From assembly GCA_964441155.1 (NCBI GenBank), contig CAYYKL010000004.1, forward strand, positions 5,103 to 69,102: 64,000 nucleotides of DNA. Direction: 5' to 3'. The notes under the pieces are model-generated. The model saw only the letters and a list, made by a program, of their open reading frames with translations, was not told where the DNA came from and did no database searches. Shown in pieces: positions 14,087-54,313 of this stretch. Source of the stretch: an uncultured Pseudomonadales bacterium (lineage in GTDB: Bacteria > Patescibacteriota > Microgenomatia > UBA1400 > RBG-16-45-19). A program made the position numbers and the translations under genes. Position 1 is the first letter of the stretch. Each line of letters starts with the position of its first letter.

Positions 14087-14087
14087 T

Positions 14088-17001: not shown

Positions 17002-17054
17002 TACTAGAAGCTTATTTCAGTTATACTTAGTTGAATGCTTTTTCGGTTAAGAAA

Positions 17055-17579: not shown

Positions 17580-17604
17580 AATCTAGGTTATTAATTAACT
17601 GAAT

Positions 17605-18330: not shown

Positions 18331-18431
18331 ATGCTTAAAGTTATATAGTATTTGCTACTAGGTCTTAATAATGAGGGTATTATAAACCCTATAACTATAT
18401 TTATCAAGTCAATGTGGCTGAATAAATTACC

Positions 18432-18806
18432 ATGAAGGATTCATCTACCTCGACAACCTTTACTGGCAGAAAAGCAGAAGATTTAGCTCAGAGATTTCTG
18501 CATGAAAAAGGATGGCGTTATATCACCAAAAACTTTTTAGGTCCGGGGGGAGAAATTGATCTCGTTTTTGTTGATAAAAAAAACGATCAACTAGTTTTTG
18601 TGGAGGTTAAAGCGAGAAATTCATCGCAATTTGGAAGTGCTCTTGAAGCGGTAACCCCACAAAAACTCAAACGAATTCAGCGAGTGGGTTTATTTTTTAT
18701 GCAAACGCATCCAAAACTGCCGCAAAGTGGGCGCATTGACATCGTTTCAATTTCTTACCATCCGAATAAGCAGCCTGCGATTGAACACCTTGAAAATATT
18801 TTTTAA
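18432..18806 (+). CDS. yraN: YraN/UPF0102 family endonuclease
   Basis: GRKAEDLAQRFLHEKGWRYITKNF...GEIDLVFVDKKNDQLVFVEVKAR matches the YraN family. Confidence 0.8.
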   Translation: MKDSSTSTTFTGRKAEDLAQRFLHEKGWRYITKNFLGPGGEIDLVFVDKKNDQLVFVEVKARNSSQFGSALEAVTPQKLKRIQRVGLFFMQTHPKLPQSGRIDIVSISYHPNKQPAIEHLENIF

Positions 18807-18812
18807 GAAGTT

Positions 18813-31151: not shown

Positions 31152-32648
31152 GTGCGTGACACGTGTTATGATAAATGCCTCATGCACCCTGGCTTGACTC
31201 GAATCTTCAAAAAGCATCCAGTACACCTCATCATTGCAGCGAGCGTTATCGTTAGGTTTGGATTTTTGCTGGTGTCAAACCATCTCTATTATCCGGATGA
31301 AATTTTTCAAACTCTTGAACCGGCATTTGCACATATTTCTGGATTTGGTATTGAAGCTTGGGAATACGAAGCGGGAATTAGACCGTTATTTGTGCCCTTG
31401 CTTTTAAGTCTCCCGTTAAAGGTTTTTTATATGGTATCTCGAGGAGACCCGCAGGTATATACGCTGCTCATGAAATTGTTTCTCTCCACTTGGTCGATTG
31501 TTATCCCTCTTGCAGTCTTTCAAGTAGTGAAAAAATCACATGCAGACGCTCGTCGTGCAAATCACTATGCGCTTCTTTCTGGCTTACTAACAGGGGTTTG
31601 GTTTGAGCTTATCTATGTTGCTCCCAGAGCCCTCTATGAAACACTAGCGCTAAATCTCATAGCAAGTGCCTATCTCGTCTATACGCGCGCTGCAACTCAC
31701 AAAGAAAAGTCACTGAGTAAAGAATTTGGATATGCTTTTTGCGCAAGTCTCGTGGCTTTAACGGGAGCAACCAGACCGCAATTTCTGGTTGTATTTCCCA
31801 TAGGGCTCTTGTGGTTTTTTAACCAAAACACATGGGCAAAAAACAGATTGCTATTCGGTGGCTTGTTGACCGTGCTCGCAATTGGGGCTCATGAATACTC
31901 GCAAACGGGCTTTTTTATGCATAGTTTTTTGCGATATATTGAACTGCAGCTGACTACACCCATAAGCGACATTTTCGGGGTCCAATCATGGCTCTATTAC
32001 CCTAAAGCACTTCTGGCTACGAGCGGGGCATTGTTTATTCCAGCCATAATTACTCTTAAAAAGAAAGTCAGCAGGTCTTGGTGGTTGGCACTCATTGTTC
32101 TGGTTATAAGCCATAGCGCGCTACCTCACAAAGAATTGCGCTTTATCTTGCCCATTGTGCCCATAGTGATGATACTATTTGGCCAAAGTCTTGACCTTTG
32201 GCATCAAACAGCGAAGCGATTCACAAAATATCTGCCAGAAGTTTTAACTGGTGCTGCGCTACTTATGAGCATATTATCGCTTCTTTATGTTTTTCCTTGG
32301 TCTAAAGAGTACTACACAGTGCCATTTCTTTACAGAGATTCACTGCTTAAAACTGCTAATGTTTTGCATGAGGATTCGAGTGTCTGTGGAATATATGATG
32401 AATCACGAACTTGGCCAATTTCTCTGAGTTATTATCTTATAAACCGTAATGTACCGCTGTATAACCAAGATTATCCGCCGCCCAACCTGGATGTGATTAG
32501 CCATCAACTCACGCAGGTAGGTGACTCGATCGCGGTTTCAGTAAAACAACCGGCAACGTGCGCAACCGACCCAGCTTACACCAACAAGCGTTCGTTTCCA
32601 GCAATTCAATCGATCGTAGAAGAGTACCAATTCTCAAGCGTAAAGTAA
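31152..32648 (+). CDS. GT22-like (Alg9/PigB/PimE-type) integral-membrane mannosyltransferase
   Basis: Multi-TM protein. The first loop HLYYPDEIFQTLEPAFAHISG matches the GT22 hallmark (HPDEhFQSlE). Confidence 0.55.
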   Translation: MRDTCYDKCLMHPGLTRIFKKHPVHLIIAASVIVRFGFLLVSNHLYYPDEIFQTLEPAFAHISGFGIEAWEYEAGIRPLFVPLLLSLPLKVFYMVSRGDPQVYTLLMKLFLSTWSIVIPLAVFQVVKKSHADARRANHYALLSGLLTGVWFELIYVAPRALYETLALNLIASAYLVYTRAATHKEKSLSKEFGYAFCASLVALTGATRPQFLVVFPIGLLWFFNQNTWAKNRLLFGGLLTVLAIGAHEYSQTGFFMHSFLRYIELQLTTPISDIFGVQSWLYYPKALLATSGALFIPAIITLKKKVSRSWWLALIVLVISHSALPHKELRFILPIVPIVMILFGQSLDLWHQTAKRFTKYLPEVLTGAALLMSILSLLYVFPWSKEYYTVPFLYRDSLLKTANVLHEDSSVCGIYDESRTWPISLSYYLINRNVPLYNQDYPPPNLDVISHQLTQVGDSIAVSVKQPATCATDPAYTNKRSFPAIQSIVEEYQFSSVK

Positions 32649-40922: not shown

Positions 40923-42167
40923 TCAATTTTTGAGGTTTTTTATTACGGGGCGCAGAAGATTCCAACAAAAAATAATAAATGCAAGTATCGCTAGCGAACT
41001 AGACGCAACCAAAACATTGTTAGCAATCTCTTGAATGCTATCGTTAAAGACCATCATGAGCAAAATCTCCTCGCCCAATGCAAGAAGAACGAGGACAGTA
41101 AAAATAAACTGTCCTCTAAGCATTTTGTACAATGAAATCAACAAGGCCAGCGACAGCAAGCCGCATGCCACCAAGTATGGCAATGCGTATGGCATAATTA
41201 AATGATATCGGTCACCTAGCATTAATCCAATGCTATATGCTGGCAGCGCCGTGTAAATGCCTATTAATGACGCTATTATCCCTGATGCTCCGATAAGCAC
41301 CGCTATCATAAGTTTTCTCCGTTGATTTTCGAAAGACAAAGATGGGGCAATTAGGGGAGTGATTAAAATATAAAAACTTTGCATTATAAAAAATATTGTT
41401 TTCCCAACCAAACTCAAGAGCGCATAGGTACCTGCTTGTTCAGGTGGTAAGTATTTTTTAGCGAAAAAAATATCCACCGTAAGTAAGGCTATAACGCCAA
41501 TTCTGGCAATCATAATTTTAATTAAAAATATCCAGTGGGATCGTTTTAACTGACTAGTATTGCGAAACAATCTTATTATTTGATTACCTTCACCATAAAG
41601 ATAAAAGAGCAACACAATTATTGAAGAAGACAAAATTGCGGCCACAATAATTTCGAACGCACGAGGATTATCGGTTGATAGCCAGGTCAACAAAACTTTG
41701 GCGGTTGCCTCGAGCAGCAATCCCACCCCAACTAATACAAAAAATAGTCTTGCTTGCAAGAAACCTCTAATCCATGCAATGGGAAACATGAGAAAAATCG
41801 TCAGGGCACTCAAACTTAAAATTAACCATGAGTTGGGAAAATTAAAATAGCTACTCCACCATGGGGAGCCGATTAAAAAGATGCCTGCGGCAATTAAACC
41901 CCAATATATCGCCAATTTACCAAAGGCTGCGGTAATAGCTTTTGCTTCAGTCGAGTTTTTTGCTGCATAGGTATTAGTTGCGACTGCAATGGCGATACTT
42001 GCAATCGACACTAAAGTAATACTATTGGTCAGCAAGGCTAAATTCCCCATATCTTCCAAACTCAAGGATTTATTAGCAATAAGTGCAAAAAGCCAACCTG
42101 AAGCATTGGCGACTAATCCAGCCAGCCAAAAAAAACCAATCGAAAGTTTATTTTTTGAAATTCTCAT
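40923..42167 (-). CDS. Wzx-like (MOP family) polysaccharide flippase
   Basis: 414 aa with about 12 TM segments. The N-terminal ...LSLEDMGNLALLTNSITLVSI... is the polysaccharide-biosynthesis-protein signature. Confidence 0.5.
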   Translation of the reverse strand: MRISKNKLSIGFFWLAGLVANASGWLFALIANKSLSLEDMGNLALLTNSITLVSIASIAIAVATNTYAAKNSTEAKAITAAFGKLAIYWGLIAAGIFLIGSPWWSSYFNFPNSWLILSLSALTIFLMFPIAWIRGFLQARLFFVLVGVGLLLEATAKVLLTWLSTDNPRAFEIIVAAILSSSIIVLLFYLYGEGNQIIRLFRNTSQLKRSHWIFLIKIMIARIGVIALLTVDIFFAKKYLPPEQAGTYALLSLVGKTIFFIMQSFYILITPLIAPSLSFENQRRKLMIAVLIGASGIIASLIGIYTALPAYSIGLMLGDRYHLIMPYALPYLVACGLLSLALLISLYKMLRGQFIFTVLVLLALGEEILLMMVFNDSIQEIANNVLVASSSLAILAFIIFCWNLLRPVIKNLKN

Positions 42168-42239
42168 CTTCGGTAGTGTAGCATTCGAAGTGAGCGACTT
42201 AAACTGAAACGTGACTTACGTATTGGCAATGGAATTCAA

Positions 42240-42968
42240 TTATATATTTCTCGCGCAAATGAAAAAACTTCGATCCACTTTGGAGAGATGAGTGGGTACT
42301 AAACTATGCCTAATAACTTTGAGTCCTTTGCTTTGCAAGTATTCCTTTAGCCAGTGCTTCGGAGATCGATCCATAAACGTCAAGTTCTTACTCCATTGCA
42401 TATTTCTCTCATCTTCTTGTCCTGTTTCGAAAACAAAGTAACGGCATTTCTTCACCAAAGCATCAACAATTTGATCTGCAGCTTTAAACCCTTGAAAGGT
42501 AACTAGATGATGAAAGACACTGAGTAAAGAAATCATGTCGAATTTTTCTAATCCTCTGGCTATTTGAGGAGTTAGGTATTGATAGATAAATTTAGTATTT
42601 GGTGTTTGATTAAGTACTTCAAGAGATTTTGCGTAATAGTATGCCCGCCTGTCTTGCTCAATCCCTGTAGCTTGAATATGAGAGTTTTCAGCGATTTTAA
42701 ATACAAAGTAGCCCAGCTGAGAACCAATATCTAAATATGAATGGATTTTTTTAAGATTAATGTTTTCAGAGATTAAATGTAAACGATCATCACAAATTCT
42801 CTTGTGACTATTTGGTTTGAGATACCGGATGTAATTGGGATTATATGTGGGCTGATATAGCTCAACGAATTGAGTTGCTTGAGCAAAATTGAGGTAAAGA
42901 TAAGAAAGTGTTTTTTTAATCATCGCTTTCAAGTACCGATAATACTTTATTAAGTTCTGCTTGATCAT
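42240..42968 (-). CDS. SAM-dependent methyltransferase (class I-like)
   Basis: YLDIGSQLGYFVFKIAE is motif I-like. The start may instead be the internal Met at 42923, which would reduce the overlap with the upstream gene. Confidence 0.5.
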   Translation of the reverse strand: MIKQNLIKYYRYLKAMIKKTLSYLYLNFAQATQFVELYQPTYNPNYIRYLKPNSHKRICDDRLHLISENINLKKIHSYLDIGSQLGYFVFKIAENSHIQATGIEQDRRAYYYAKSLEVLNQTPNTKFIYQYLTPQIARGLEKFDMISLLSVFHHLVTFQGFKAADQIVDALVKKCRYFVFETGQEDERNMQWSKNLTFMDRSPKHWLKEYLQSKGLKVIRHSLVPTHLSKVDRSFFICARNI

Positions 42969-43896
42969 GGTTTAGGTTCTGGGCTATGTCAATCATGAGT
43001 TTTGCTATGCAGCAAGTCTCAACAAAATCGGAAATAAACGCCTGATTAATCCAAGACTGCGTTGCTTGCAAAGACAATGTATATGACTTGAAAGCATTAA
43101 CAAACGCATGGTAAGTTGGGCGTCTGCGTGAGAAATTTTTAACGTACGCCATCAAAAGTATGTGGTCATACAGCACAAGAAACTTGCTAGAATTTTCAAA
43201 ATCAATGAAACGATAAATGGAATTATTAACTAAAATATTATCCAGATTCAAATCTCCATGGATATGCGCAATTGGCACGGCAAATGACTTATGTTCTAAG
43301 AATTTCTGCAACTTTCTTGTCATTCTATGGGGATGCTTACGTACGTGTATTGGCAACTCATTAATCTTAGCTATGAGTGATTTTGTGAGCACATGTGAAG
43401 AACTTAATTGTTGACTCTTTTCATGCATAGGAGTGATGGCCGTTAAAACTGATTGAGTTTTGCGCAAATAATGATCAGGAATGAACGAATCAATCAGACT
43501 TCTCCCCGGAATCAATGTTTCACTACTATGCATGATTCCGGCAGTGGATGTTTTCAGCGAGATAGGCTTGGGCACTACATCTACGAGCTTGCGCTGCAAA
43601 AAAGAAAAGTTATTTTTGAGCCTTTGATCACCGATAGCACTTAAGCTGATTCTAACAACAACTTGATCTTCGTAGTCGAGGATAGTAAGACCATGAAAAT
43701 TTGTTTTTACCCGTAGCCCACGAATGTTTTTATGAGCAAGCTCAGTGATTTCATGAGCTAAAAATGGAGATATCCAAACAGGCACTGGAAGTATTGTGTG
43801 TTGACGAAAAATTCTTGGAAACACTCTTTTGTGCTCCCAGATCAAAATCCATCCTGATTTTGGCTTCTGACTAATGTGAATGAGCCCAGATTGCAT
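42916..43896 (-). CDS. APH/kinase-like phosphotransferase (possible sugar or lipid kinase)
   Basis: IAHIHGDLNLDNILVNNSIYRFIDFENS carries the HGDLxxxN catalytic loop and the DFE metal-binding motif. Confidence 0.6.
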   Translation of the reverse strand: MQSGLIHISQKPKSGWILIWEHKRVFPRIFRQHTILPVPVWISPFLAHEITELAHKNIRGLRVKTNFHGLTILDYEDQVVVRISLSAIGDQRLKNNFSFLQRKLVDVVPKPISLKTSTAGIMHSSETLIPGRSLIDSFIPDHYLRKTQSVLTAITPMHEKSQQLSSSHVLTKSLIAKINELPIHVRKHPHRMTRKLQKFLEHKSFAVPIAHIHGDLNLDNILVNNSIYRFIDFENSSKFLVLYDHILLMAYVKNFSRRRPTYHAFVNAFKSYTLSLQATQSWINQAFISDFVETCCIAKLMIDIAQNLNHDQAELNKVLSVLESDD

Positions 43897-43919
43897 ACTA
43901 GATTCATACCAAATAGTTT

Positions 43920-44615
43920 CTATTTTCTCAAAACGGCAAGTAGATAAGCAGCATGCAAGGAATCAATTTTTGCACAAATGCTATTGAGTGGATAAGGCAA
44001 GGGATAATATCCAACACCCTTCGCTTGTTGAATGCTAAATCCATGCAATCTTGCTAGATCGGTCAAGCCTCTTGGGGAAAAGACACGCAGATGCGCTTGC
44101 ATTTCGTCAATTTTTTGATTGTAGTTGGGATGGGCAGGATTACCCACAAATGATTGGTCTGAAACTTGTGTCGAAAATGGCTGCCAACCAAACAAAAGCG
44201 AGAAAATATTGTGCCATGATGCCAAATTAGGAGTGCACACAATTGCCCAACCACCAGGCTTCAAGATACGATGCATTTCTGCCATCATAAGGTCTGTTTT
44301 CGCCACATGCTCAATAACCTGATTACAAATAATTCCATCGACACTTTTATTTTTGAGTGGCAAGGGCTGATTGAAGTCGGAAGCAATCGCGTGTCCTCGA
44401 CGCTTTATAAAACTTCTTAATGTGGACAACTCGTGATCAATGCCAATTATTGTTTTAGCGCCAACAAATTCACCCAAATGAAAACTTTCAGCTCCATCGC
44501 CACACCCCAAATCAACGAGGATTTTCGCCTGCAATTTTTTTGATTCGCTGATTACGGCTTCTCTAAAAACAGCTTCATTTTGCCTGGTAATAGTTGATTG
44601 TCGACTCCGTTTCAT
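43920..44615 (-). CDS. Class I SAM-dependent methyltransferase
   Basis: VDLGCGDGAESFHL (motif I) ... ILKPGGWAIV (post-II). Confidence 0.8.
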   Translation of the reverse strand: MKRSRQSTITRQNEAVFREAVISESKKLQAKILVDLGCGDGAESFHLGEFVGAKTIIGIDHELSTLRSFIKRRGHAIASDFNQPLPLKNKSVDGIICNQVIEHVAKTDLMMAEMHRILKPGGWAIVCTPNLASWHNIFSLLFGWQPFSTQVSDQSFVGNPAHPNYNQKIDEMQAHLRVFSPRGLTDLARLHGFSIQQAKGVGYYPLPYPLNSICAKIDSLHAAYLLAVLRK

Positions 44616-44621
44616 ACATCC

Positions 44622-45539
44622 TTATCTTTTCACCATTTGCCATACATAAGGGTTCTTGCCCATAAGATTGTAATCAATCCACCCCATAAGTCTTGATGAA
44701 ATCTCAAGAATAATCAAGCTTAAAAGAGAAGATAAGCTCGTGGGACTGCGCATAATATGACGGGCAATAATGGTAGCAATGAGTGGAAGATTAAGTGTTG
44801 CTACTCGATAATTGTATTGATGATTGACCCATTGATGCCCGGCAAAAACACGTCTTCTTTGCATAATAAAATCGGCAACTGTTTTCGGGCCAGAATTATA
44901 AACAATCGATCTAGGAGCGTATACGGTGCTGTATCCGATTAACTGCAATAATACCTCAATTGTTGCCTCATCAACCGCACTTTGTGGTGGAATTTGCCTG
45001 ACTATGTTTCGAAATGCAACCATCTCACCACATTTCGGTTTTACGAGAGATATTTCGTGGTGTAATTCCCACAACAAATGCACAACTTTCCCCATGGAAG
45101 TGCTTATACTATTGGTGGGTTTTGGGTGAGCTCCCACCATACCGACATCGGGTTGCAAAAAAGGAACAAGTATCTCTTCAATCGCTTTTTTATGCAGTCG
45201 CAAATCAGCACTCACGGTAACAACAATGGGCGATTTTGCATGTGATAAAAACAGGTTAATTGCCGCTGATTTGCCTTGACGCTCAGCTTGTGTGTAGAGC
45301 TTAATTTTGGGATTCGATTGGGATTTCTTAACCACCAACTCATTTGTTTTATCATTGCTTCCAGATGAAACAACAATTATTTCTTCAATTTTTGTCAGGT
45401 TAAGCACTTGTTTTTCAATAGAATCTATTGTCGCATTGACGTTTTTTTCTTCGTTGTGAGCAAAAATTCCTATGGTTACTTTTAGCTGCTTTTGTTTAAT
45501 TGGTATTAATTTAGTCGGAATCATCGCTGCATTGAGCAT
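44622..45539 (-). CDS. Family-2 glycosyltransferase
   Basis: KVTIGIFAHNEEKNVNATIDSIEKQ...IIVVSSGSNDKT. Confidence 0.75.
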   Translation of the reverse strand: MLNAAMIPTKLIPIKQKQLKVTIGIFAHNEEKNVNATIDSIEKQVLNLTKIEEIIVVSSGSNDKTNELVVKKSQSNPKIKLYTQAERQGKSAAINLFLSHAKSPIVVTVSADLRLHKKAIEEILVPFLQPDVGMVGAHPKPTNSISTSMGKVVHLLWELHHEISLVKPKCGEMVAFRNIVRQIPPQSAVDEATIEVLLQLIGYSTVYAPRSIVYNSGPKTVADFIMQRRRVFAGHQWVNHQYNYRVATLNLPLIATIIARHIMRSPTSLSSLLSLIILEISSRLMGWIDYNLMGKNPYVWQMVKR

Positions 45540-45809: not shown

Positions 45810-46532
45810 ATGTCAAATCACTACCGCTCTAGACTTGAAAAAACCGAATCAAAGCGGTTTGCCAAACAGGCAATGATGTTGGGTATTGCCACCCTGATTT
45901 TGCTTGTTGTCCTCATTATCATTGGCATTCCTGCATTAACCAAACTGGCTGTCTATTTTAGTGGAAGTCAGAGTGGAGCCGACACTGAACTCGTTGATAC
46001 TATGGCACCACTATCTCCCCAAGTAAACACTGTTCCTGAAGCAACTAATAGCGCAAAAGTGTCATTGTCAGGTTTTGCTGAGTCAGGATCGGAAGTGCTC
46101 CTCAAAAAAGATGATGTCGAAATTCAGAAATCAATTGTTGACGCTGTGGGATCATTTAGTTTTTCAAGCGTTCAGTTGGAAAAAGGAATGAACGAATTCA
46201 GGTTAACTGCAGTTGACTTAGCTGGCAATGAGAGTCCACCGACCCCGCTTTTAAGCATTGACTACGACAACGAAAAGCCAAAGCTCTCCATTTCTAATCC
46301 CAAAGAAGGAAGTAAATTTTTTGGCTCAAGTGAGCGGCTCATTTCAATTGTTGGTGAAACTGACCAAAATACGCAGGTCACCTTAAACAAGCGTAGCTTA
46401 GTTGTCGATAGCAATGGTAACTTTACTACCTCACACGAATTAATCGAGGGTGACAATCAGCTAGAGATAATCGCCACTGATACAGCTGGAAACGCCGCCT
46501 CTACCACGATCAAGGTTTCTTACCAACCTTAA
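45810..46532 (+). CDS. Membrane-anchored protein with two bacterial Ig-like domains
   Basis: N-terminal TM. The repeated ...V.L.G.AE.GS.V.L..DDVEIQKS.VDA.G.FSFS.V.L..G.N...L.AVD.AGNES... / ...VVDSNGNFTTSHELIEGDNQLEIIATDTAGNAAS pattern is typical of Big-like domains. Confidence 0.4.
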   Translation: MSNHYRSRLEKTESKRFAKQAMMLGIATLILLVVLIIIGIPALTKLAVYFSGSQSGADTELVDTMAPLSPQVNTVPEATNSAKVSLSGFAESGSEVLLKKDDVEIQKSIVDAVGSFSFSSVQLEKGMNEFRLTAVDLAGNESPPTPLLSIDYDNEKPKLSISNPKEGSKFFGSSERLISIVGETDQNTQVTLNKRSLVVDSNGNFTTSHELIEGDNQLEIIATDTAGNAASTTIKVSYQP

Positions 46533-48492
46533 ATCCCTGCCTCAGCTCCTGTAATCTCTTTTTCTCGCTGGAAGCCAGCTCCAAGCTTGCAATCATCCAC
46601 CATATGAGTACGAAAGGGTAGAAAAAGGAATTATTGAAAAGTGAATGAGTGAGAATTGCGACAAGACTAAAGATTTGAAAAGGATACTTTCTAACAGAAA
46701 TACTAAAGCTCAATAAAAAATAAGAAAAACTGATCATGCCAACTATTCCCGTGGTAGCCAAAATAAGCACAAAACTATTATCCGGAGAAGAAGGATGGTA
46801 GGGAATCAGGGGATCATGTGATTGAGGCAAGGTGAACGTGCGATACGAGTTATACCCTATGCCAATATATGGGTGATCTTTAAAAATATCCCAACCAGTA
46901 ACAATGCTGCGAGCACGATGAACAATGGAATACGTCCTCGTGAGGTTTACTCCTTCTCCGCCTGGTTTTATAAGACTACTAAATGCTAAGAGACTTACTC
47001 CCAAAACTGTTATATACAATAGCGCTTGTTTGAAATACCGCAAAGAAACTACACTTGATGCAGCAAACGCAATAAAGGCTGCATAAGAACTTCGAGAATA
47101 GGTAAGTCCCAAACTGACCATGACGATTGATCCCAGCAAGTGCTTGAGAGTTTTCCCATAGGCAACGATATACATGCTAAAAAGCACAATGAGTAATCCC
47201 AGAAAATTAGGATCAAATAATGAACCAATCATCCGATAATAGTGGTCATCCCAACCGTAGTCGAGCAACCACCGCATGTCAGGCATAAACAAGTATTGCA
47301 ACCAGCCCAAAAAAAGATACATACATCCAAAATATTCGATAGCTTTTCTCCAAGAAAACGAAAGCCAATTGACTACAATCCCATCCCAGAGCATCCATCC
47401 AAAAGCCACATACGCAAGCCATCTCCACCAATATAACGCCGAAGGCAGCAGATTTGACTGTAGTTGATGAGCATTTACTAATAAACTGATTCCCATAACC
47501 AAAGAGAATACCAGTAAGCCCAGTGTCCAGGGGGCAATGCTTGGCAAGCGCCGCTTGGTAATAAGTAATCCTACCCAATTCACAACCGCCAACAGCATGA
47601 AGATTTCAAACAAATACACTGCAACACCAGGATTGAGCTGATATCGTGTGAGCTGTCCTAAGGGGACGAGCGCAACCGCGCAAAGGGCAAACATTTGTGC
47701 AAGGCGACCTAATTTCGAATTTTGACTTGTAGCTTGCAATGAGATAGTTAGCTGATGAAATCGCACTAGCGCAGAGTGAATACTCATGAGCATTGCGTAA
47801 TACAAACCTCTTCTCCCATCTCTCCACCCTGAGCGCATGACATAGTTTTGGAAAAACTTCGCCGTTGGATATGCCAAAACTTCTAACCATGTCCAAGGTA
47901 TGCCTTGCTCAAATTTTGACAGTGCTACTTTTTTTGCATATATGTTAATTTTTTTAATTGAAGTCAGAAATGACTTATGAGAATAATGCATAAGACTTCC
48001 GTGAATTACCTCTGTCTTCTTGAAGTTCCAGACTTCATGCACTCGTCCTGACCAGGTTTGACTGGTCTTTGGACCCAAGCGCACTAACTTCACGTTTCCC
48101 ACTTCACCAAACGCTACCTTTTTACCCCACAAATAATCTTCTCTCTTGATGGAGTATCCTTTGGATTTAGCAGGCAAAGCACAAATTTTTTTAACACTCT
48201 CGATTGCTCTACTATCCAATCGCTCATCAGCATCCAAAAACATCACCCAGGGGTTCGTTGCTTGAGCCAGTGCCCAATTACGAGCCGCAGCAAAATCATC
48301 ACTCACAGCATGCTTGAGGATTTTAACTTTGTGCTGCCGCGCCTCTTCAAAAGTTGCGTCAATCGAATCATCATCAATAATGATAATTTCCTTAGCAAAA
48401 TTGAGCGTCGGCAACAATTCGCGTAAATTCTGCGTTTCATTTTTCGCTAAAATCACAATGGTGAGTGGTAACAGCTTATGTTTTTTGATCAT
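46510..48492 (-). CDS. Fusion of an N-terminal GT2 glycosyltransferase and a C-terminal Wzy/O-antigen-ligase-like (Wzy_C) polytopic membrane domain
   Basis: LPLTIVILAKNETQNL...IIIDDDSIDAT...DDFAAARNWALAQATNPWVMFLDADERL is GT2, followed by about 10 TM helices. The conserved loop ...GLTYSRSSYAAF...HPYIGIGYNSY...PDNSFVLILATTGIVG resembles Wzy_C. The likely start is Met 48492 (MIKKHK...), 4 nt into the upstream gene, rather than 48552. Confidence 0.6.
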   Translation of the reverse strand: MIKKHKLLPLTIVILAKNETQNLRELLPTLNFAKEIIIIDDDSIDATFEEARQHKVKILKHAVSDDFAAARNWALAQATNPWVMFLDADERLDSRAIESVKKICALPAKSKGYSIKREDYLWGKKVAFGEVGNVKLVRLGPKTSQTWSGRVHEVWNFKKTEVIHGSLMHYSHKSFLTSIKKINIYAKKVALSKFEQGIPWTWLEVLAYPTAKFFQNYVMRSGWRDGRRGLYYAMLMSIHSALVRFHQLTISLQATSQNSKLGRLAQMFALCAVALVPLGQLTRYQLNPGVAVYLFEIFMLLAVVNWVGLLITKRRLPSIAPWTLGLLVFSLVMGISLLVNAHQLQSNLLPSALYWWRWLAYVAFGWMLWDGIVVNWLSFSWRKAIEYFGCMYLFLGWLQYLFMPDMRWLLDYGWDDHYYRMIGSLFDPNFLGLLIVLFSMYIVAYGKTLKHLLGSIVMVSLGLTYSRSSYAAFIAFAASSVVSLRYFKQALLYITVLGVSLLAFSSLIKPGGEGVNLTRTYSIVHRARSIVTGWDIFKDHPYIGIGYNSYRTFTLPQSHDPLIPYHPSSPDNSFVLILATTGIVGMISFSYFLLSFSISVRKYPFQIFSLVAILTHSLFNNSFFYPFVLIWWMIASLELASSEKKRLQELRQGFKVGKKP

Positions 48493-49301
48493 TGATTGTA
48501 TGTATGTAATAAATTTCCAAAAAACGTAATTGTCAGCAGCATCAAACTCCATGACTCAGTTAATCTCAAAAAATATTCAACGATGCTTCCTCGCACGTTG
48601 CCAAAATGTTTTCTAAAAAAATATAAGCGAGACTGCTTAAACCATTGCAATACAATCGGATTATTTTTTGGCGTACTAGCCGCTCCTTCATGCATAATCA
48701 CCGCCCTGGGTTCGTACACGACATTTTTCCCTTCCCTAAGACAGCGTCGACACAAATCTGTTTCTTCCCAATACATAAAAAAGTTTTCATCAAAGCCCTT
48801 TAATTTTTTAAACAATGAATTAGGTATTATAAACGCTGCACCAGTTACGGCGCCAACTTGGATCATGTGTGGCGCAATCTTATGATCGAACCAGTGATTT
48901 TTTACAAATGGCAAAAAATGCAAGTATTTTCCCAAAAATGAATAGACAAAAAATGATGAAGTGAAGGTTGGCTGCAATGAATAAGAAAGTTGCGGTTGTT
49001 GCATTAAGTTAACAATTTTTGGAGCCACTATACCTGTCGATTGGTGCTTGCTAAAGTGGTCAATGAGCATGTTTACACTTTTTTCACTCATGACACAGTC
49101 TGGATTTAAGAATAACAAATAGTCGCCTGTTGCTTTTGCTGCTCCCAGATTACAGCCAACAGCAAATCCACCATTTTTCTTACTATTATCAATAACAATT
49201 ACTTCCCACGAGGGGATTTTAGGTATTGAATTGAGACACCGAGCTAAAACCGATTGGTTTTTATATGCAACTATTATTATCGAGAGCTTAATGGCTGACA
49301 T
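48489..49301 (-). CDS. Family-2 glycosyltransferase
   Basis: KLSIIIVAYKNQSVLARCLNSIPK...VIVIDNS... Confidence 0.75.
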   Translation of the reverse strand: MSAIKLSIIIVAYKNQSVLARCLNSIPKIPSWEVIVIDNSKKNGGFAVGCNLGAAKATGDYLLFLNPDCVMSEKSVNMLIDHFSKHQSTGIVAPKIVNLMQQPQLSYSLQPTFTSSFFVYSFLGKYLHFLPFVKNHWFDHKIAPHMIQVGAVTGAAFIIPNSLFKKLKGFDENFFMYWEETDLCRRCLREGKNVVYEPRAVIMHEGAASTPKNNPIVLQWFKQSRLYFFRKHFGNVRGSIVEYFLRLTESWSLMLLTITFFGNLLHTYNQ

Positions 49302-49310
49302 AGTGATGCA

Positions 49311-49334
49311 TTAATTAATTAATTAATTAATTAA
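49311..49334. repeat. (TTAA)6 tetranucleotide microsatellite
   Basis: ttaattaattaattaattaattaa sits exactly between the stop codon of GT4 49323..50432 (the stop lies inside the tract) and the start of GT2 48489..49301. Confidence 0.9.
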
Positions 49335-50432
49335 TTTAGGATAGTTACCTTGTGCCTGAATTAAAATATTGTGTAGTTTTTCACCGTGAGATTGCCAACT
49401 GAAGTTTTTTACCGCATGGGCTCGACATTGTTTTGCTAGTGTTTTGTGGAATTGAGGATCAAGCATTCTATCGATTGCAGTAGCTAATGATTTCGGATGC
49501 CTTTTGATAAGTAGTCCCGTTTTCTCAGAAATTACGGTTTCCTTATAACCTCCTTCGGATAAGGCTATTACTGGTGTAGCACATGACATTGATTCTAATG
49601 CTACTAATCCAAATGGCTCTTTCCGGGCTAAACAAAGCGTTGCAACAGCCTGAGAGTAGAGATGTGCAAGTTGTTTATCGGAGAATGGAAGGGTGCCGTT
49701 CTGGGACGACACATACCTCACGTTAATTTTTTTGTGCAAGATCGCTTTATGTAAAAATGTGTGACCGTTTATTTCATCTTTGCCACCGACAAAGAGAAAA
49801 AATGGCTCATGCCAATTTGTCTTGGCTGATTTTTTAAAGATTTTGCTGTCTACACCTAAACCTATAGGCTGAGCTTGCAATCCATAATGCTTAAGAATTG
49901 ACCTCGCATTGAACTGCGAATGAGTCAATCGAACGGTAGCTGCCCAAGTATTTCTTGTGTCGATTCGCTTTAACATGCTGCGCTCATACATGGCTGACCA
50001 TCGACTGAGCAGCTTCAAATGATTGAGCGAGTGCAATTCAGGCTCTGAGACTACTCGTAGCGGCTCTTCAATAAAATAAAGTGTAGGAATTTTACTCAAG
50101 CGCAAGAGATAGGGAGCTTGCGTGTGCCTGCATGGATGCACCAATAGTAAGTCAGGATTATGGGCGGAAATTTGAGCAGAAAGCGTTTGATATATGCCCC
50201 GCAACTGATAACGTAGCCAGAATGCGCGAGAAATTATTGTTTCATGATCTGGTGTTTTGTTGTTTATTTGGTGATTAATTATCACTACAGAGTTAGGTAA
50301 TAAAGCTTTTTTTTGATGAGCCGCGCTAAACCAGACTATTTGATGACCAAGAGAAGTGAGGTAAAGCACCTGCTCATAAACTACGCGAGCAGCTCCGCCT
50401 GGAGGCACATTATCAAAAACGGCGATTTTCAT
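49323..50432 (-). CDS. GT4 glycosyltransferase
   Basis: ...FLFVGGKDEINGHTFLHKA...EPFGLVALESMSCATPVIAL. The likely start is MKIAVFDNV (50432), not the upstream Met at 50501 used by the ORF track. Confidence 0.75.
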   Translation of the reverse strand: MKIAVFDNVPPGGAARVVYEQVLYLTSLGHQIVWFSAAHQKKALLPNSVVIINHQINNKTPDHETIISRAFWLRYQLRGIYQTLSAQISAHNPDLLLVHPCRHTQAPYLLRLSKIPTLYFIEEPLRVVSEPELHSLNHLKLLSRWSAMYERSMLKRIDTRNTWAATVRLTHSQFNARSILKHYGLQAQPIGLGVDSKIFKKSAKTNWHEPFFLFVGGKDEINGHTFLHKAILHKKINVRYVSSQNGTLPFSDKQLAHLYSQAVATLCLARKEPFGLVALESMSCATPVIALSEGGYKETVISEKTGLLIKRHPKSLATAIDRMLDPQFHKTLAKQCRAHAVKNFSWQSHGEKLHNILIQAQGNYPKLIN

Positions 50433-51630
50433 TGCCTGATTGTACCAGTGATACCCAGGTACTGACCATGACAGAAGCAGATTCTTTAGCAGAAAACTCA
50501 CGAGCTTGATTCAAGCCTTTTTGAATAATTGTGTCCCGTTTATGATTACTCATCTTAAGCATTTCCGTTATGGCTGTGCTCAAAATGGTTGAACTGCTCG
50601 TGTCAACCAGCATCGCTGCGTCACCAGCAACCTCCCTAAAAATTGGCAGATTGGAACAGATGACCGGCACCCCAGCCTTCATTGCCTCTGCGATTGGCAT
50701 CCCGAAACCTTCATATCGTGAAGCATAGACAAACGCATGTGCTCTGGCATACAACTGATCGAGACAAGTATCACAAACATACTCCGTCACCCAAATATTT
50801 TCTCCCGTACCTTGAACCACGTCAGATCCCCAACCTTTTGCGCCAACTATCACTAATGGATGATTCACTTTGATTGGAGCATCAAGTTGCTCGAATGCCA
50901 TAATAAGCGTGCCAAGGTTCTTTCTTGGTTCCCGAGTAGCCACACTTAATACGTAGTTATTTTTTTGAATCGTGGAAAATAATCCAGGCAACTTCTTTAT
51001 ACAGGCAAAGTCAACACAAGAGTCAGTCAGAGTCTGCCGATTATCGATTGGAGGATAAACAACTGAAACCATTTCTTTGGGCAATTGCCAATCTTTGACA
51101 AGCTCACTTTTCATGGTTTTCGAAATTGAAAAAAAGTGAGTACAACGGGAGCGAATCGCCCTCAATCGTCTGGTTTGAATTGATGCGTTTTTTTTTGTAT
51201 GGGAAGCGGGAATCTTTTGAGCAGATAAGTCAAACACCGTGGCCGTCGCTAGGCTATTCGTGGAAAAACTATAAGCGTCAAATTGATGCATAATATCCAT
51301 CGCACCAATTAATGGGTCAACAAGCTTTAAGGGAAGCATTTGCAAAGCGCTTAGCAACGAAGATTGGATTTTTTGAGGAACAAACAGGATTTTTTGCTTA
51401 AGCTGAGGGGCAATTTGATTCAGTTGCGCTTCAATTTTTTCTTGCAAACCCCGTGGACAAACTCCAATCAGCAAATATTCATGCTGTGATTCATACTTCA
51501 CCAAAGCATGAATCACACTGGCACAATAATAAGAAACACCAGTGGGTCGATCTTGAAATATAGGCGTTATGTCTAAAGCAATGCGCATGACATAATAATA
51601 GCAGAGTAAAAAAATTACTTGAGACAACAC
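50413..51630 (-). CDS. GT4 glycosyltransferase
   Basis: ...SVATREPRKNLGTLIMAFEQL...RYEGFGMPIAEAMKAGVPVICSNLPIFREVAG (EX7E). The coding sequence contains an A9 homopolymer (51188..51196). Confidence 0.75.
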   Translation of the reverse strand: MLSQVIFLLCYYYVMRIALDITPIFQDRPTGVSYYCASVIHALVKYESQHEYLLIGVCPRGLQEKIEAQLNQIAPQLKQKILFVPQKIQSSLLSALQMLPLKLVDPLIGAMDIMHQFDAYSFSTNSLATATVFDLSAQKIPASHTKKNASIQTRRLRAIRSRCTHFFSISKTMKSELVKDWQLPKEMVSVVYPPIDNRQTLTDSCVDFACIKKLPGLFSTIQKNNYVLSVATREPRKNLGTLIMAFEQLDAPIKVNHPLVIVGAKGWGSDVVQGTGENIWVTEYVCDTCLDQLYARAHAFVYASRYEGFGMPIAEAMKAGVPVICSNLPIFREVAGDAAMLVDTSSSTILSTAITEMLKMSNHKRDTIIQKGLNQAREFSAKESASVMVSTWVSLVQSGNENRRF

Positions 51631-52860
51631 ATGGGCTACACTAAATCAGCTCTATTAGGGTTTTCATGGATTGGCCTAATGCGCTTTTTTAGTCGCGGCG
51701 GCGGCATGCTTCGAGCCGCTCTATTAGCCCGATTGCTCTCGCCACAAGACTTTGGCATATTTGGCATCGCTTTTTTAGCTCTAGCATTTTTAGAACTTCT
51801 GACTGAAACAGGCATAAATGTCGTCTTGGTTCAAGAGCACGAGAACGCCATTGAGGAATATCTCAATACTGCCTGGGTTGTTTCTATTGTGCGCGGCGTA
51901 CTTGTTTGCCTGCTTTTGTGTCTAACTGCTCCGTTAATCGTTCTCTTTTTCAAAGAACCCCGAGCTTTACCATTATTGCTTTTAGTAAGTCTAGTCCCAT
52001 TAGTGAGAGGCTTCATCAATCCCGCAGTTGCTCGATTTCAAAAAAAACTGGAGTACCGTCGGGATTTTTCCTATCGAACAGTATTAATTGTTGTGGAAAC
52101 TTTGGTGAGCGTCACTCTTGCATTTATAACTCGTCATCCGGCAAGCTTGGTTGTAGGCTTACTCGCAAGTGCATTTATAGAGCTCATCATTACCCATACT
52201 ACAATCCGTCCACGCCCAAAACTTGCATTTAATCGAAAACAATTCACAAAAATCGTGAGCTCGGGAAAGTGGGTGACTACCGCCGGTATTTTTGAGTACA
52301 TCGCTAGCAGAAGCCAGGATATCGTCATTGGTCGCTTTATTTCAAGTGTTTCGTTAGGGCTGTATCAGATGGCCAATCGATTCACCACGCTACCAACGTC
52401 AGAAATCATCGAAGTCGTTAACCGAGTCACGTTCCCCATCTACACGAAAATTGCTGATGACAAGAAACGCTTGCGACGTGCTTTTTTTCGCAATTACTTA
52501 GGGATTTTAGCTTTATTTCTCCCGCTAACAATCGTAATTTATGTCTTTGCTGATGCGATAACGCTTTTCATCCTTGGAGACCAATGGATGGCTGTGGCGC
52601 CGCTTATGCGCTCCTTAAGCTTGCTCAACGCTGCAATTGTACTTACCGCTCCTTCAAACCCACTCTTGTTGGCGCTCAAAAAGCAAAAGCATCTATCAAA
52701 TCTCACCTTGTTGCGAGCATTCGTGCTGGTGATAATGATTGTGCCGATGATATCGAAATGGGGAATTAATGGTGTGATATATGCCACTTTCATTTCATAC
52801 ATGGTTACACTTCCGTTTAGATTCTGGTACACATTCAACGTACTTAAGGGAAGCCAGTGA
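51619..52860 (+). CDS. Wzx-like (MOP family) polysaccharide flippase
   Basis: ...GMLRAALLARLLSPQDFGIFGIAFLALAFLELL... with about 12 TM helices. An alternative start is Met 51631. Confidence 0.55.
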   Translation: MRQHMGYTKSALLGFSWIGLMRFFSRGGGMLRAALLARLLSPQDFGIFGIAFLALAFLELLTETGINVVLVQEHENAIEEYLNTAWVVSIVRGVLVCLLLCLTAPLIVLFFKEPRALPLLLLVSLVPLVRGFINPAVARFQKKLEYRRDFSYRTVLIVVETLVSVTLAFITRHPASLVVGLLASAFIELIITHTTIRPRPKLAFNRKQFTKIVSSGKWVTTAGIFEYIASRSQDIVIGRFISSVSLGLYQMANRFTTLPTSEIIEVVNRVTFPIYTKIADDKKRLRRAFFRNYLGILALFLPLTIVIYVFADAITLFILGDQWMAVAPLMRSLSLLNAAIVLTAPSNPLLLALKKQKHLSNLTLLRAFVLVIMIVPMISKWGINGVIYATFISYMVTLPFRFWYTFNVLKGSQ

Positions 52861-53404
52861 TTAAAACACTTAAAGAATCTCTTGTGTATAGTGACTCGTG
52901 GCTTAGCTTCTACAAAGATGATGTTTCGTTTCCAGGTGGAGAAATTGGTACCTATGTTAAATTGAGACGTAAAAGCGGGGCAGGCGTAGTCCTAATTAAC
53001 CCAGAAAATAAATCATATTGGTACAATTATTACGATATCCAACGCAACGAGAATCATGGGTAATTCCAGGAGGAGGAATTGAGCCAGGGCAACAACCTGA
53101 AGAGGCAGCAATTTCCGAAACTCAAGAAGAAGTAGGCATACATATCGACGCCAAGCATCTCCAGCCGTTAGGTAGTTTTTATCCACTCAATAGTTTAAGT
53201 GACGAGCGCATTAGCTTGTTTTTGGCAAGAATTTCAGAATCTGAATTGAGAGATCACGTTGCAAACGATGCGGAAATCATTTCAGTTGCTCTCATTGAAA
53301 TTTCTCATGCTCTTCAAATGATTGAAGATGGACGGATTAACGATGAAATAACTGCACTCGCAATACACCTTGTTCTAAACAAACTAACTCTTGGCTCCCA
53401 GTAG
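52857..53404 (+). pseudogene. NUDIX hydrolase split by a frameshift (either a pseudogene or an assembly error)
   Basis: ORF 52857..53063 holds the NUDIX N-terminal beta-strand region. The overlapping ORF 53018..53404 in another frame holds the Nudix box GGGIEPGQQPEEAAISETQEEVG. The frame switches near 53040..53060. Confidence 0.5.
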
Positions 53405-54313
53405 TCCACGCACTGAACCGAGCATAACGCCAATATCCGCTACCACTTGAACAATAGGCAACACGACATAATATTCGAACCTATGCTTGGCCACGCGCTT
53501 CAATCGTTTGCGAAATTTAATTATCGGAAATAGAGGATAGAGCACAAACAACCAAGGCACCCAAATGAACAGGAAATAGCGCAGCCAAACTGTATGAATT
53601 CTCTGCATGTGTGGGCGATATCGCGCTTCCATATCGCCGCGTGCATATCCGGCAATTGCTTTGAAAAAATTTCCGAAAGATTTTGGTGGATGCCAATACA
53701 CAATTGCTTTAGGATTTATAATCATGCCCACCACTGACTTCAAACGCCGGGCAAATACTAAATCTTCGCATGTGGTTAAATATTCAGGATACTTGCCGGC
53801 TTTTTTCCAAGCCGCTTTTGTAAATGCAATCGATCGGGAAGACGGCAAAAAGCCCTTCGTGTTCAAATCATGCGGATCAGTTGCTGTAAACCAAGCAAAA
53901 CAACGCTCGATTATGTATTTGGTAATCGGCAAATAAAACCCGCCCACTACTTCATTTTCTCGCTTGGAACCGACTGCAATCGCCATTTCTTTAAGCCAAT
54001 CAATATCAGCCTTACATCCTGCATCGGTGATTGCAATCCATTCGTTGTTAGCGGACTCAATTCCTATATTCCTACCTTTTGAGCGATTAACATTGCCTGC
54101 TTTAATCAATTGAATTTTAATCGATGCATGCAACTCACCCCAATGCATAATTTGCTCAGCAGTAGCATCTCGTGATTGAGCATCAACAATAATGATTTCA
54201 TTCGGTTTGCATGACTGTTTTGCAAGAGAATTAAGCAAATCAGCAATGCTTAAAGCTTCATTTTTTGTCGTAACGACTACCGAAAAAGGTATTAATGGAG
54301 ATGCTGGATTCAT
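53384..54313 (-). CDS. Family-2 glycosyltransferase with a C-terminal membrane segment
   Basis: FSVVVTTKNEALSIADLLNSLAKQSCKPNEIIIVDAQSRDAT. Confidence 0.75.
   Translation of the reverse strand: MNPASPLIPFSVVVTTKNEALSIADLLNSLAKQSCKPNEIIIVDAQSRDATAEQIMHWGELHASIKIQLIKAGNVNRSKGRNIGIESANNEWIAITDAGCKADIDWLKEMAIAVGSKRENEVVGGFYLPITKYIIERCFAWFTATDPHDLNTKGFLPSSRSIAFTKAAWKKAGKYPEYLTTCEDLVFARRLKSVVGMIINPKAIVYWHPPKSFGNFFKAIAGYARGDMEARYRPHMQRIHTVWLRYFLFIWVPWLFVLYPLFPIIKFRKRLKRVAKHRFEYYVVLPIVQVVADIGVMLGSVRGLLGAKS

Follow-up and report, generated by a model that had tools for sequence, protein, structure and literature searches.

A cytoplasmic glycosyltransferase joined to an O-antigen-ligase-type membrane enzyme: two genes, usually separate in uncultured Patescibacteria, fused into one

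One gene in the 64,000-nucleotide stretch of DNA analysed here (the window) encodes, in a single protein, a cytoplasmic sugar-adding enzyme of family GT2 and an O-antigen-ligase-type membrane enzyme. The fusion is real, and is the joined form of a gene pair spread through one group of tiny uncultured bacteria. Because the pair is family-wide and the design is known from Brucella WadA, we treat it as a clue to function, not as a new kind of enzyme. Most likely its glycosyltransferase primes an acceptor and is coupled to a ligation step on the outer side of the membrane. Relatives of the housekeeping genes and of the locus are Microgenomates/Patescibacteria; the features of the window are collected in Table 1.

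Table 1. The fused gene, its domains and its surroundings (positions in the window)
Feature	Position	Strand	Basis or remark
Variable cassette: 414-aa polytopic protein, methyltransferase, choline-kinase/APH-like, methyltransferase, GT2	40923..45539	-	Pfam
Conserved Ig-domain partner, 240 aa, bitopic	45810..46532	+	Pfam Big_6, Glucodextran_B
Fused gene: GT2 module, then WaaL-fold membrane domain	46510..48492	-	660 aa + stop; ORF list, Pfam
WaaL-fold domain, residues 256-660, ~12 TM helices, predicted N-in/C-in	46513..47727	-	
Pfam Wzy_C match, residues 457-589	46726..47124	-	carries R467, R526, D571
D571	46780-46782	-	occupies position of WaaL H338
R526	46915-46917	-	equivalent of WaaL R288
R467	47092-47094	-	equivalent of WaaL R215
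GWDDHYYR motif, residues 413-420, TM5-TM6 outer loop	47233..47256	-	
GT2 module, residues 1-255	47728..48492	-	Pfam, PDB matches, Foldseek, invariant residues
DXD motif D87-A-D89 of GT2 module	48226-48234	-	D87-A-D89-E90 invariant in 22 homologues
GT2 (GT2_270)	48489..49301	-	abuts fusion start codon; Pfam
(TTAA)6 tract	49310-49336	.	TRF
GT4	49323..50501	-	upstream of fusion, same strand; Pfam
GT4	50413..51630	-	upstream of fusion, same strand; Pfam
Wzx-type MOP flippase (Polysacc_synt_3)	51619..52860	+	divergent from operon; Pfam 243 bits, NCBIfam MOP flippase
Conserved second GT2, 309 aa	53384..54313	-	Pfam

Results

The fused gene and its split relatives

The open reading frame proposed in an earlier, sequence-only reading of this DNA is present on the minus strand, with every motif quoted from it (IIIDDDSIDAT, DDFAAARNWA, LDADERL, TYSRSS and HPYIGIGYNSY). 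An alternative ATG at 48552 would carry the frame into the upstream gene, and the start that yields 660 residues is favoured by the homologues and by independent gene calls. Gene calls in runs SRR35759038 and SRR8893625 give identical 660-residue proteins, found again in an NCBI record, the longest contig to carry the gene being 108 kb. Full-length fused homologues form 22 clusters, at 33-97% identity, in which the linker between the halves is continuous and alignable.

When domain architecture was compared across related genomes, as the sequence-only reading had proposed, the halves proved to be separate genes in 57 of 60 Patescibacteria/Microgenomates loci: adjacent in 37, 1-6 kb apart in the other 20, and in some with GT-C genes (PMT_2, GT87) inserted between them. 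In two loci, L004 and L005, one in-frame stop codon is all that parts them. The fusion has a split-gene ancestry, within a conserved neighbourhood. Its architecture is uncommon in number, as first supposed, with about 21 fused forms against hundreds of split ones in some 570 family representatives (50% clustering), but precedents exist in WadA (PMC9938171) and, in reverse domain order, in the protein P0080 described below. The prevalence of separate halves and the single stop codon of L004 and L005 might suggest an artefact of two normally separate genes (a frameshift, a lost stop codon or a chimeric assembly), but this is scarcely credible for a protein found unchanged in independent runs, with alignable homologues down to 33% identity and fused forms that are essentially one clade, and we reject it.

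Literature searches for O-antigen ligases in Patescibacteria or the candidate phyla radiation, and for PF04932 together with PF00535, returned no description of the family, and no NCBIfam model reached its cut-off for the GT2 half, the membrane half or any neighbour.

The glycosyltransferase half

Pfam PF00535 (Glycos_transf_2) matches residues 11-100 at 60.4 bits (cut-off 23.3), within a GT-A core of about residues 8-172. The half has no transmembrane helices of its own; helices 175-255 look amphipathic or interfacial on our reading of the sequence. Residues N18, D41, D87, D89, E90, H152 and E153 are invariant in the alignment of fused homologues. The best PDB sequence matches of the module are GmaR (4e-12) and SunS, the half also matching dolichol-phosphate mannose synthase weakly, and its top Foldseek matches are the GT-A enzymes SunS and ThuS (3.6e-9). 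By tblastn, about 230 residues align at 25-29% identity with genes at the waaE, lgtF and lpsC positions; a K. pneumoniae GT2 lying between waaA and coaD gives 27.5% identity (E 2e-12), and an N. gonorrhoeae GT2, its gene identified from position, 29% (E 1e-16). With reference genes named by position, the half is a putative member of the LPS-core WaaE/LgtF-type subgroup. WaaE (KdtX), LgtF and LpsC, as well as GmaR and SunS, have DXD and DDFAAARN-type motifs in common with it; they are, however, stand-alone or TPR-bearing proteins, whereas this one is fused to a membrane domain, and none of their acceptors (LPS-core heptose, flagellin, a peptide Cys) is likely to be the one used by the fusion.

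The membrane half

PF04932 (Wzy_C) scores 50.6 bits (cut-off 31.7) over profile positions 6-148 of 149, compared with 50.0 bits over positions 6-146 for E. coli WaaL, so both domain assignments of the sequence-only reading hold. We looked for a better match to an unrelated membrane family: only Wzy_C scored, with no other membrane family, PglL_A (PF15864) among those undetected, at E<=1 in a Pfam scan of the fusion. The membrane-domain profile (A2) matched no PDB sequence at E<=10; among solved structures the WaaL ligase is nearest, far ahead of the rest. AF2 models (pLDDT 85.8 and pTM 0.82 for the fused protein, pLDDT 89.0 for the other) have about 12 membrane helices, rather than the ten or so first counted, and show the 12-TM WaaL fold with its big outer loop between TM9 and TM10. 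Model helices and loop charges lead us to read the topology as probably N-in/C-in, and the conserved polar motifs all face outward.

The essential residues of WaaL are, in E. coli numbering, R215, R288 and H338, and their roles in WaaL and PglL have been described (PMC3643930). Two of the three are present in the fusion, the counterparts R467 and R526 both being invariant, and the histidine is replaced: Asp stands at the WaaL/PglL essential-His position in all 22 fused forms and in 36 of 39 stand-alone ones. In WaaL-type enzymes the arginine pair has a role in binding the diphosphate of undecaprenyl diphosphate (Und-PP). Residues D415, H417 and R420 of the GWDDHYYR motif are likewise invariant in fused and stand-alone forms.

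The neighbourhood

The gene for the Ig-domain partner is convergent with the fusion, their 3' ends overlapping by 23 bp. It specifies a basic cytoplasmic tail (with an SRL motif), one transmembrane helix and two Ig-like domains; the alignment shows a low-complexity Ser/Thr/Pro/Ala linker after the helix, and a conserved P..ATNSA motif. Homologues occur in 58 of 80 related loci, adjoining the ligase-like gene convergently in all but one; 43 of these 57 pairs overlap, most often by 17 bp. A homologue search with the partner returned only 14 close relatives, and it had no sequence match in the PDB. The partner gene, the His-to-Asp change and the two-gene normal state had not figured in the sequence-only reading.

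The same-strand run of glycosyltransferase genes proposed earlier is present (48489..51630 upstream of the fusion), although its order is GT4, GT4, GT2 and then the fusion. Related loci hold homologues of GT2_270 in 32 cases and of GT4_392 in 13. The Wzx homologue recurs in 37 (about two-thirds), frequently as the gene just upstream of the GT2 half, and the second GT2 in 22 (about one-third), where it is paired with Wzx. The C-terminal stretch of this second GT2 looks to us like two hydrophobic TM-like segments; a role as a GtrB-like Und-P-sugar synthase is not supported, its nearest solved relative being TarS.

The variable cassette differs in the relative L083 (69% identical), in which the methyltransferase and kinase genes are replaced by those for a TagF-like Glyphos_transf protein, a nucleotidyltransferase-HAD protein and an Fe-ADH. 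Its 414-residue polytopic protein (40923..42167) is 43% identical to the L083 counterpart; Pfam gave it no match even at E 0.1, and BLASTP showed no similarity to Wzx.

The (TTAA)6 tract, thought to adjoin the fused gene, lies one gene further upstream, where it takes in the final codons and the stop of GT4 49323..50501 and then the 5' part of the 21 nt that separate this gene from the ATG of the following GT2. A phase-variation switch is not supported: the tract supplies TAA in every frame, its copy number is unchanged in an independent sample, and it is absent from relatives at 86% and 69% identity.

Among about 40 window ORFs scanned with Pfam there were no lpx or waa genes, and other monoderm-type surface proteins (WxLIP, dockerin) are encoded. 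This host group is not known to synthesise lipid A or LPS.

Comparison with known systems

Judged by architecture, the closest characterised precedent is Brucella WadA (BAB1_0639), a bifunctional core glucosyltransferase/O-antigen ligase (Servais et al. 2023, PMC9938171) in which a cytoplasmic N-terminal glycosyltransferase occupies residues 1-266 and an O-antigen-ligase domain with 12 TM helices residues 267-703. Layout and proportions match the 1-255/256-660 division of the fusion, the comparison being one of domain maps. WadA acts on a lipid A-core acceptor, which is not expected in the host of the fusion, and retains the conserved His (H605) where the fusion family has Asp. Its homologues are reported to be few and in Rhizobiales (PMC9938171), whereas the pair described here is family-wide and usually split.

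WaaL itself (E. coli K-12; Cupriavidus metallidurans, PDB 7tpg/7tpj) is 14% identical to the membrane domain. Relative to WaaL the fusion family has additional invariant motifs (GWDDHYYR, PGGEGVNL, HSLxNNSFFYP), D571 in place of H338, an attached GT2, and surroundings lacking the LPS context.

P0080 is a WaaL-GT2 fusion from a MAG of Wenzhouxiangellaceae (gammaproteobacteria). Its GT2 part is clearly homologous to that of the fusion (hhalign 99.7%, E 4.8e-26) and its ligase part aligns over 266 columns (E 9.5e-5), GWADRVGG standing opposite GWDDHYYR. Since its domain order is opposite, P0080 is an independent fusion; it is uncharacterised, comes from a Gram-negative host and retains the canonical HHPHN motif.

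A functional likeness only is offered by TacL (SPD_1672), the lipoteichoic-acid ligase of Streptococcus pneumoniae, proposed to shift polymer from Und-PP to a membrane glycolipid (PMC5727136). TacL has a Wzy_C domain, a length of about 400 residues and a host without an outer membrane, and the teichoic-acid-type cassette at the locus of a close relative of the fusion provides a parallel; unlike the fusion, it carries no glycosyltransferase.

Discussion

Starting from the domains, folds, topology and conserved motifs set out above, we infer which donor and acceptor are used, in what order the steps run, and that the activity is ligation rather than polymerisation, as follows. The interfacial helices would keep the N-terminal GT2 on the inner side of the membrane, and the GT2 would add a sugar, from a nucleotide sugar, to a membrane-anchored acceptor, in the manner of its probable closest characterised relatives, the WaaE/LgtF-type LPS-core glucosyltransferases. 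Neighbouring GT2 and GT4 enzymes would build a glycan on Und-PP, the Wzx encoded nearby would flip it, and the outer-face Arg, Asp and His residues of the 12-helix WaaL-fold domain would move it onto the primed acceptor. Since lipid A synthesis is not known in this lineage, some other acceptor is expected: either a different membrane glycolipid, with a lipoglycan or LTA-like product comparable to that of pneumococcal TacL, or else a protein. To a two-sided bifunctional envelope enzyme of Microgenomates-type Patescibacteria, priming and then ligating as WadA does, we give an even chance. The sequence-only proposal that one protein adds a sugar and then ligates or polymerises the unit is plausible, with two amendments: since the GT2 is cytoplasmic and the polar motifs of the membrane domain face outward, a Wzx flip is required between the reactions, and by analogy with WadA the sugar more likely goes on the acceptor than on the transferred unit.

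A further reading, which we put forward tentatively and think less likely, makes the GT2, the WaaL-fold domain (with Asp for His) and the Ig protein an envelope machine conserved across Microgenomates-type Patescibacteria. The glycan flipped by Wzx would be joined to an acceptor other than LPS, which could be a membrane lipid anchor or the Ig protein. The Ig protein would be an obligate partner or substrate, and might pair with the enzyme as a class B PBP does with a SEDS enzyme.

Among the alternatives, a Wzy-type polymerase is the strongest, though unlikely: the membrane domain would join Wzx-flipped Und-PP repeat units outside the cell, with the GT2 as a repeat-unit enzyme and the Ig protein as co-polymerase or regulator (as in Wzz-Wzy or class B PBP-SEDS pairs). 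In hhalign comparisons, which included only two polymerases, the membrane domain scored 22.9 with WaaL against 17.5 with WzyE and 12.6 with WbbH of E. coli, and the nearest solved structure is that of a ligase. Both aligned arginines are ligase/OTase residues, and by reading of the sequence no Gly stands 11 residues after R526 or R528, so that neither is followed by an RX10G motif. The GT2 partner probably comes from an acceptor-side LPS-core subgroup which elsewhere is joined to a canonical WaaL, the characterised fusion of the same design is a ligase, and the 414-residue polytopic protein could itself fill a polymerase role.

The membrane domain might instead be a protein O-oligosaccharyltransferase like PglL, PilO or WsaB, with the Ig protein as dedicated substrate and the GT2 helping to build the glycan. 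PglL/PilO enzymes belong to the Wzy_C family and have the two arginines in common with the fusion; their genes often adjoin that of the target protein (PMC3643930), as the ligase-like gene here nearly always adjoins the Ig-protein gene. The Ser/Thr/Pro/Ala linker and P..ATNSA motif of the partner, the improbability of a lipid A acceptor and the other monoderm-type surface proteins of the host are in keeping with this. Against it, PglL_A is undetected and the canonical His missing, the neighbour encodes no pilin and is convergent and not co-transcribed, overlapping 3' ends could by themselves hold the two genes together, and the putative subgroup of the GT2 would favour acceptors linked to lipid. 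We consider this rather improbable.

Less probable still is a three-component GtrB-like system in which the GT2 makes an Und-P-monosaccharide that is flipped by Wzx, after which the single sugar is moved to an outside acceptor by the WaaL-fold domain; the two halves would then act in the way of GT2 plus GT-C systems. The coupling of GT2 to membrane enzyme is tight, with the flippase directly upstream in minimal loci; the GT-C enzymes found between split halves use Und-P-monosaccharide donors; the His-to-Asp change resembles the catalytic Asp that GT-C and SEDS enzymes possess; and there is the weak match to dolichol-phosphate mannose synthase. Yet the arginines that match the WaaL-essential pair are kept, the GT2, lacking TM helices, appears to group with WaaE/LgtF-type enzymes and not with GtrB/DPMS, and we know of no WaaL-fold enzyme that uses a monophosphate donor.

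Patescibacteria are abundant and nearly all uncultured, and the chemistry of their cell envelope is essentially unknown. The fusion we prefer to read as a priming and ligating enzyme is a natural Rosetta stone, indicating that two usually separate enzymes, a WaaE-like GT2 and one of WaaL fold, act together. With Wzx and the Ig partner, these make up a compact gene set, open to experiment, for a surface glycoconjugate perhaps shared by an entire class of Patescibacteria. The bifunctional O-antigen ligase design, until now described only for Brucella WadA, extends to organisms thought to be free of LPS, and the natural swap of Asp for a His regarded as essential to WaaL and PglL is relevant to how the family works, a matter still debated. 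If the envelope-machine proposal is true, monoderm bacteria would have a class of glycoconjugate ligase not described before, with altered catalytic chemistry.

Domain architecture of the fused protein

The fused protein gives two significant, non-overlapping Pfam matches: Glycos_transf_2 at residues 11-100 (60.4 bits) and the Wzy_C 'O-antigen ligase' family at residues 457-589 (50.6 bits, against a cut-off of 31.7). The pairing of a GT2 with a Wzy_C-type domain proposed in the sequence-only reading is thus borne out, and all the motifs cited there are present in the protein. It had allowed that the membrane region might prove closer to an unrelated family; the Pfam scan returned no rival membrane family at E<=1. 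An alternative start, ATG 48552, would run into the upstream gene and is supported neither by the homologue alignment nor by independent gene calls.

The AlphaFold2 model of the full-length protein, made with an input alignment of 22 full-length homologues (pLDDT 85.8, pTM 0.82), divides the protein into a GT-A domain (about residues 8-172), three helices (175-255), which we read as amphipathic, and about 12 transmembrane helices (260-656). Judged by the positive-inside rule, the loop charges fit an N-in/C-in topology, which places the GT2 in the cytoplasm. The invariant polar residues of the membrane part (R283, E296, R357, Q399, D405, R407, D415, D416, H417, R420, D427, R467, R519, R526, D571, H616 and N620) all sit towards the cell exterior, either on the outer face or within the membrane's outer half.

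The glycosyltransferase module

Since the DXD motif (D87-A-D89) and other residues of the catalytic region are invariant in the homologue alignment, the GT2 domain looks active. The closest solved sequences are GmaR (4e-12) and SunS. Searching annotated replicons by tblastn yielded a Klebsiella pneumoniae GT2 gene at the waaE position, flanked by waaA and coaD, a Sinorhizobium meliloti GT2 that has lrp, trxB and greA as neighbours in the lps core cluster, and matches in Neisseria gonorrhoeae and Proteus. Enzymes of these types act at the cytoplasmic face, where they glycosylate a core oligosaccharide anchored to lipid. A GT2 of the same subgroup (hhalign 99.7%, E 4.8e-26) forms the C-terminal part of P0080, a 681-aa protein from a Wenzhouxiangellaceae MAG whose N-terminal part is a canonical WaaL-type domain (HHPHN). 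The domain order is opposite to ours: in P0080 the two families have been joined independently, for a second time, and in a Gram-negative.

The membrane domain resembles WaaL

Residues 256-660 were also modelled separately (pLDDT 89.0, pTM 0.89) and compared with solved structures. In Foldseek WaaL alone was significant (3e-6); in the structure comparison WaaL was well ahead, followed by FtsW (12.3) and RodA (10.9 and 9.8), with nothing else above 8. The family is remote at the sequence level, and no PDB chain matched its profile by sequence. Escherichia coli WaaL is matched by the Pfam Wzy_C profile over the same range and with equal score. A Wzy-type polymerase, for which the Ig-domain protein encoded by the convergent gene would be a co-factor, is an unlikely reading. 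The two E. coli polymerases compared, WzyE and WbbH, have no Wzy_C match and fit the profile of the membrane-domain family less well than WaaL does.

Three independent alignments, two made with hhalign, against E. coli WaaL and against the WaaL-type part of P0080 (E 9.5e-5, 266 columns), and one taken from Pfam coordinates, agree in equating R467 with WaaL R215 and R526 with WaaL R288, and in placing D571 at the position of WaaL H338, SSPDN being aligned with HHPHN. The aspartate is present in 22/22 fused and 36/39 stand-alone proteins; the family therefore retains both arginines, with the histidine replaced. According to PMC3643930, R215, R288 and H338 matter for WaaL and are also conserved in PglL. 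We give only a small probability to the reading that the domain is a PglL-like O-oligosaccharyltransferase acting on the Ig-domain protein.

Gene neighbourhood and the Ig-domain partner

We compared 80 loci from species-representative genomes, 60 of which hold both parts. The order that recurs across the related loci is GT2_309, Wzx, (GT4), (GT2), GT2 half, ligase-like gene, then the convergent Ig-domain gene. The Ig-domain partner, found in 58 of the 80 loci, essentially all Patescibacteria loci of sufficient extent, carries two conserved motifs: SRL on the cytoplasmic side and P..ATNSA where its first Ig domain begins. Its gene always adjoins the ligase-like gene, including in loci with a displaced GT2 half; the two are convergent in 57/58 loci. 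Of these 57 pairs, 43 overlap at the 3' ends, most often by 17 bp; in the window the overlap is 23 bp (46510-46532). Homologues of the 270-aa GT2 (48489..49301) lie, in many of the loci, within a stop-free ORF of about 730-750 codons, and further domains are probably fused to them there.

A perfect (TTAA)6 tract (49310-49336), with TAA in each reading frame, takes in the last codons and stop of the GT4 gene 49323..50501 and runs on into the spacer before the next GT2. Its copy number is unchanged in an independent sample (L084 995-1022), and none occurs at the matching position in the relatives L086 and L083.

The window is unusually dense in glycosyltransferases. The cassette flanking the conserved core, at 40923-45539, includes two methyltransferases and a choline-kinase/APH-like protein; that of L083, a 69%-identical relative (12992-19075), has a TagF-like Glyphos_transf glycerophosphotransferase, a nucleotidyltransferase-HAD fusion and an Fe-ADH. 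This difference suggests strain-variable decoration of teichoic-acid-like or phospho-substituent type. The polytopic protein of the cassette, which matches no Pfam or NCBIfam family and shows no BLASTP similarity to Wzx, is a candidate polymerase or second flippase.

Features of the window and of related loci (L numbers; own coordinates)
Feature	Coordinates	Strand	Remarks
Fusion ORF	46510..48492	-	660 aa
Ig-domain partner	45810..46532	+	240 aa, bitopic; basic cytoplasmic tail, one TM helix, two Ig-like domains (Big_6, Glucodextran_B)
GT4, GT4, GT2 genes	48489..51630	-	same strand as fusion; run abuts it
Wzx flippase	51619..52860		divergent from GT run
Conserved GT2 (GT2_309)	53384..54313		
Polytopic membrane protein	40923-42167	-	414 aa; counterpart in L083, 43% identity
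Extra GT2 genes	within 2486-15719 and 31152-32648		at least six; one double-GT2, 728 aa
GT4 protein	within 2486-15719 and 31152-32648		825 aa
PMT_2 GT-C enzyme	14055..15719		
Alg9-like GT22 enzyme	31152..32648		
Long-ORF GT2 homologues	L006 7766-9994; L008 7750-10008; L012 7809-9995; others		
Stretches between separated halves	L006 10851-13906; L008 10851-12452; L017 10796-16067		GT-C-type (PMT_2, GT87), a methyltransferase, unassigned 500-580-aa proteins

Host lineage

Related loci are titled Candidatus Blackburn-, Chisholm-, Gottesman-, Ames-, Woese-, Levy- and Pacebacteria, 'Microgenomates group' and 'Patescibacteria group'. The same Patescibacteria-type locus and synteny recur in over 40 MAG records (including L001-L003 and L006-L011) that bear the title 'uncultured Gammaproteobacteria' or 'uncultured Pseudomonadales bacterium'; in these bulk-submitted MAGs the titles look like placeholder taxonomy, not real assignments. 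The named relatives of the window's phosphoglycerate kinase are a Microgenomates group bacterium, Woykebacteria and Saccharimonadales, and the window encodes monoderm-type surface-protein domains (WxL-interacting, dockerin). No LPS genes were seen among its roughly 40 Pfam-scanned ORFs, and lipid A synthesis is not known from Patescibacteria.

A proposed priming and ligation model

Brucella WadA begins with a cytoplasmic glycosyltransferase (1-266), which supplies the terminal glucose of the core; once MsbA has flipped the core, a 12-TM O-antigen ligase at the C-terminus (267-703) joins O-antigen to this glucose (PMC9938171). The fused protein matches WadA closely in domain architecture and proportions. 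We class it as a putative WadA-like bifunctional glycosyltransferase/ligase, and its design is a known one; what is new is a lineage not known to make LPS, the aspartate at the canonical histidine position and the conserved Ig-domain partner. In a monoderm, the pneumococcal Wzy_C enzyme TacL is proposed to ligate teichoic acid chains onto glycolipid (PMC5727136).

With about even confidence, we favour a model that starts at the inner face, where the GT2 would prime an acceptor anchored in the membrane. The GT2 and GT4 enzymes encoded nearby would build a glycan on Und-PP, Wzx would flip it, and at the outer face the WaaL-fold domain would ligate it to the primed acceptor. The model draws on the analogy with WadA, the probable WaaE-type identity of the GT2, the independent fusion in reverse order, the WaaL fold with its retained arginines, and Wzx. 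As the lineage is expected to lack lipid A, the acceptor would not be lipid A-core, but a glycolipid, as for TacL, or a protein. The earlier suggestion that the protein adds a sugar and then ligates comes close to this model but omits the membrane flip, which is needed since one active site faces inward and the other outward; the observation behind it was confirmed, the interpretation upheld in part.

The fused gene derives from a conserved pair

HMMER, run exhaustively over 1.84 billion representatives (E<=1e-30), gave 570 relatives, only about 21 of them full-length fusions; the remainder are stand-alone ligase-like proteins (360-440 aa) or GT2s (about 250 aa). Full-length clusters with both Pfam domains number 22, at 33-97% identity. 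Of the 60 loci with both parts, 37 have the halves side by side on one strand, their ends mostly overlapping; in 20 the halves are 1.1-6.4 kb apart, again on one strand, and only three loci carry a fusion. Genes inserted between separated halves encode GT-C enzymes (PMT_2, GT87) and methyltransferases. A GtrB/GT-C-like monosaccharide system is a very improbable account of the locus. In L004 and L005 a lone in-frame stop codon (10766-10768, TAA, and 10748-10750, TGA, respectively) separates the GT2 and ligase-like genes, and one substitution there would produce the fused form; these two loci come from Candidatus Blackburnbacteria and Chisholmbacteria MAGs. The fused protein is identical in two independent sequencing runs and the NCBI record, on contigs of up to 108 kb, and we dismiss an artefact as having next to no probability.

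When the ligase-like domain was put through a rough neighbour-joining analysis, one clade took in 33 of the 35 fused sequences. With the halves mostly separate and the fused forms essentially one clade, the window gene is therefore a fused derivative of an old, conserved pair, and its chief value is as evidence tying widespread split genes into one pathway.
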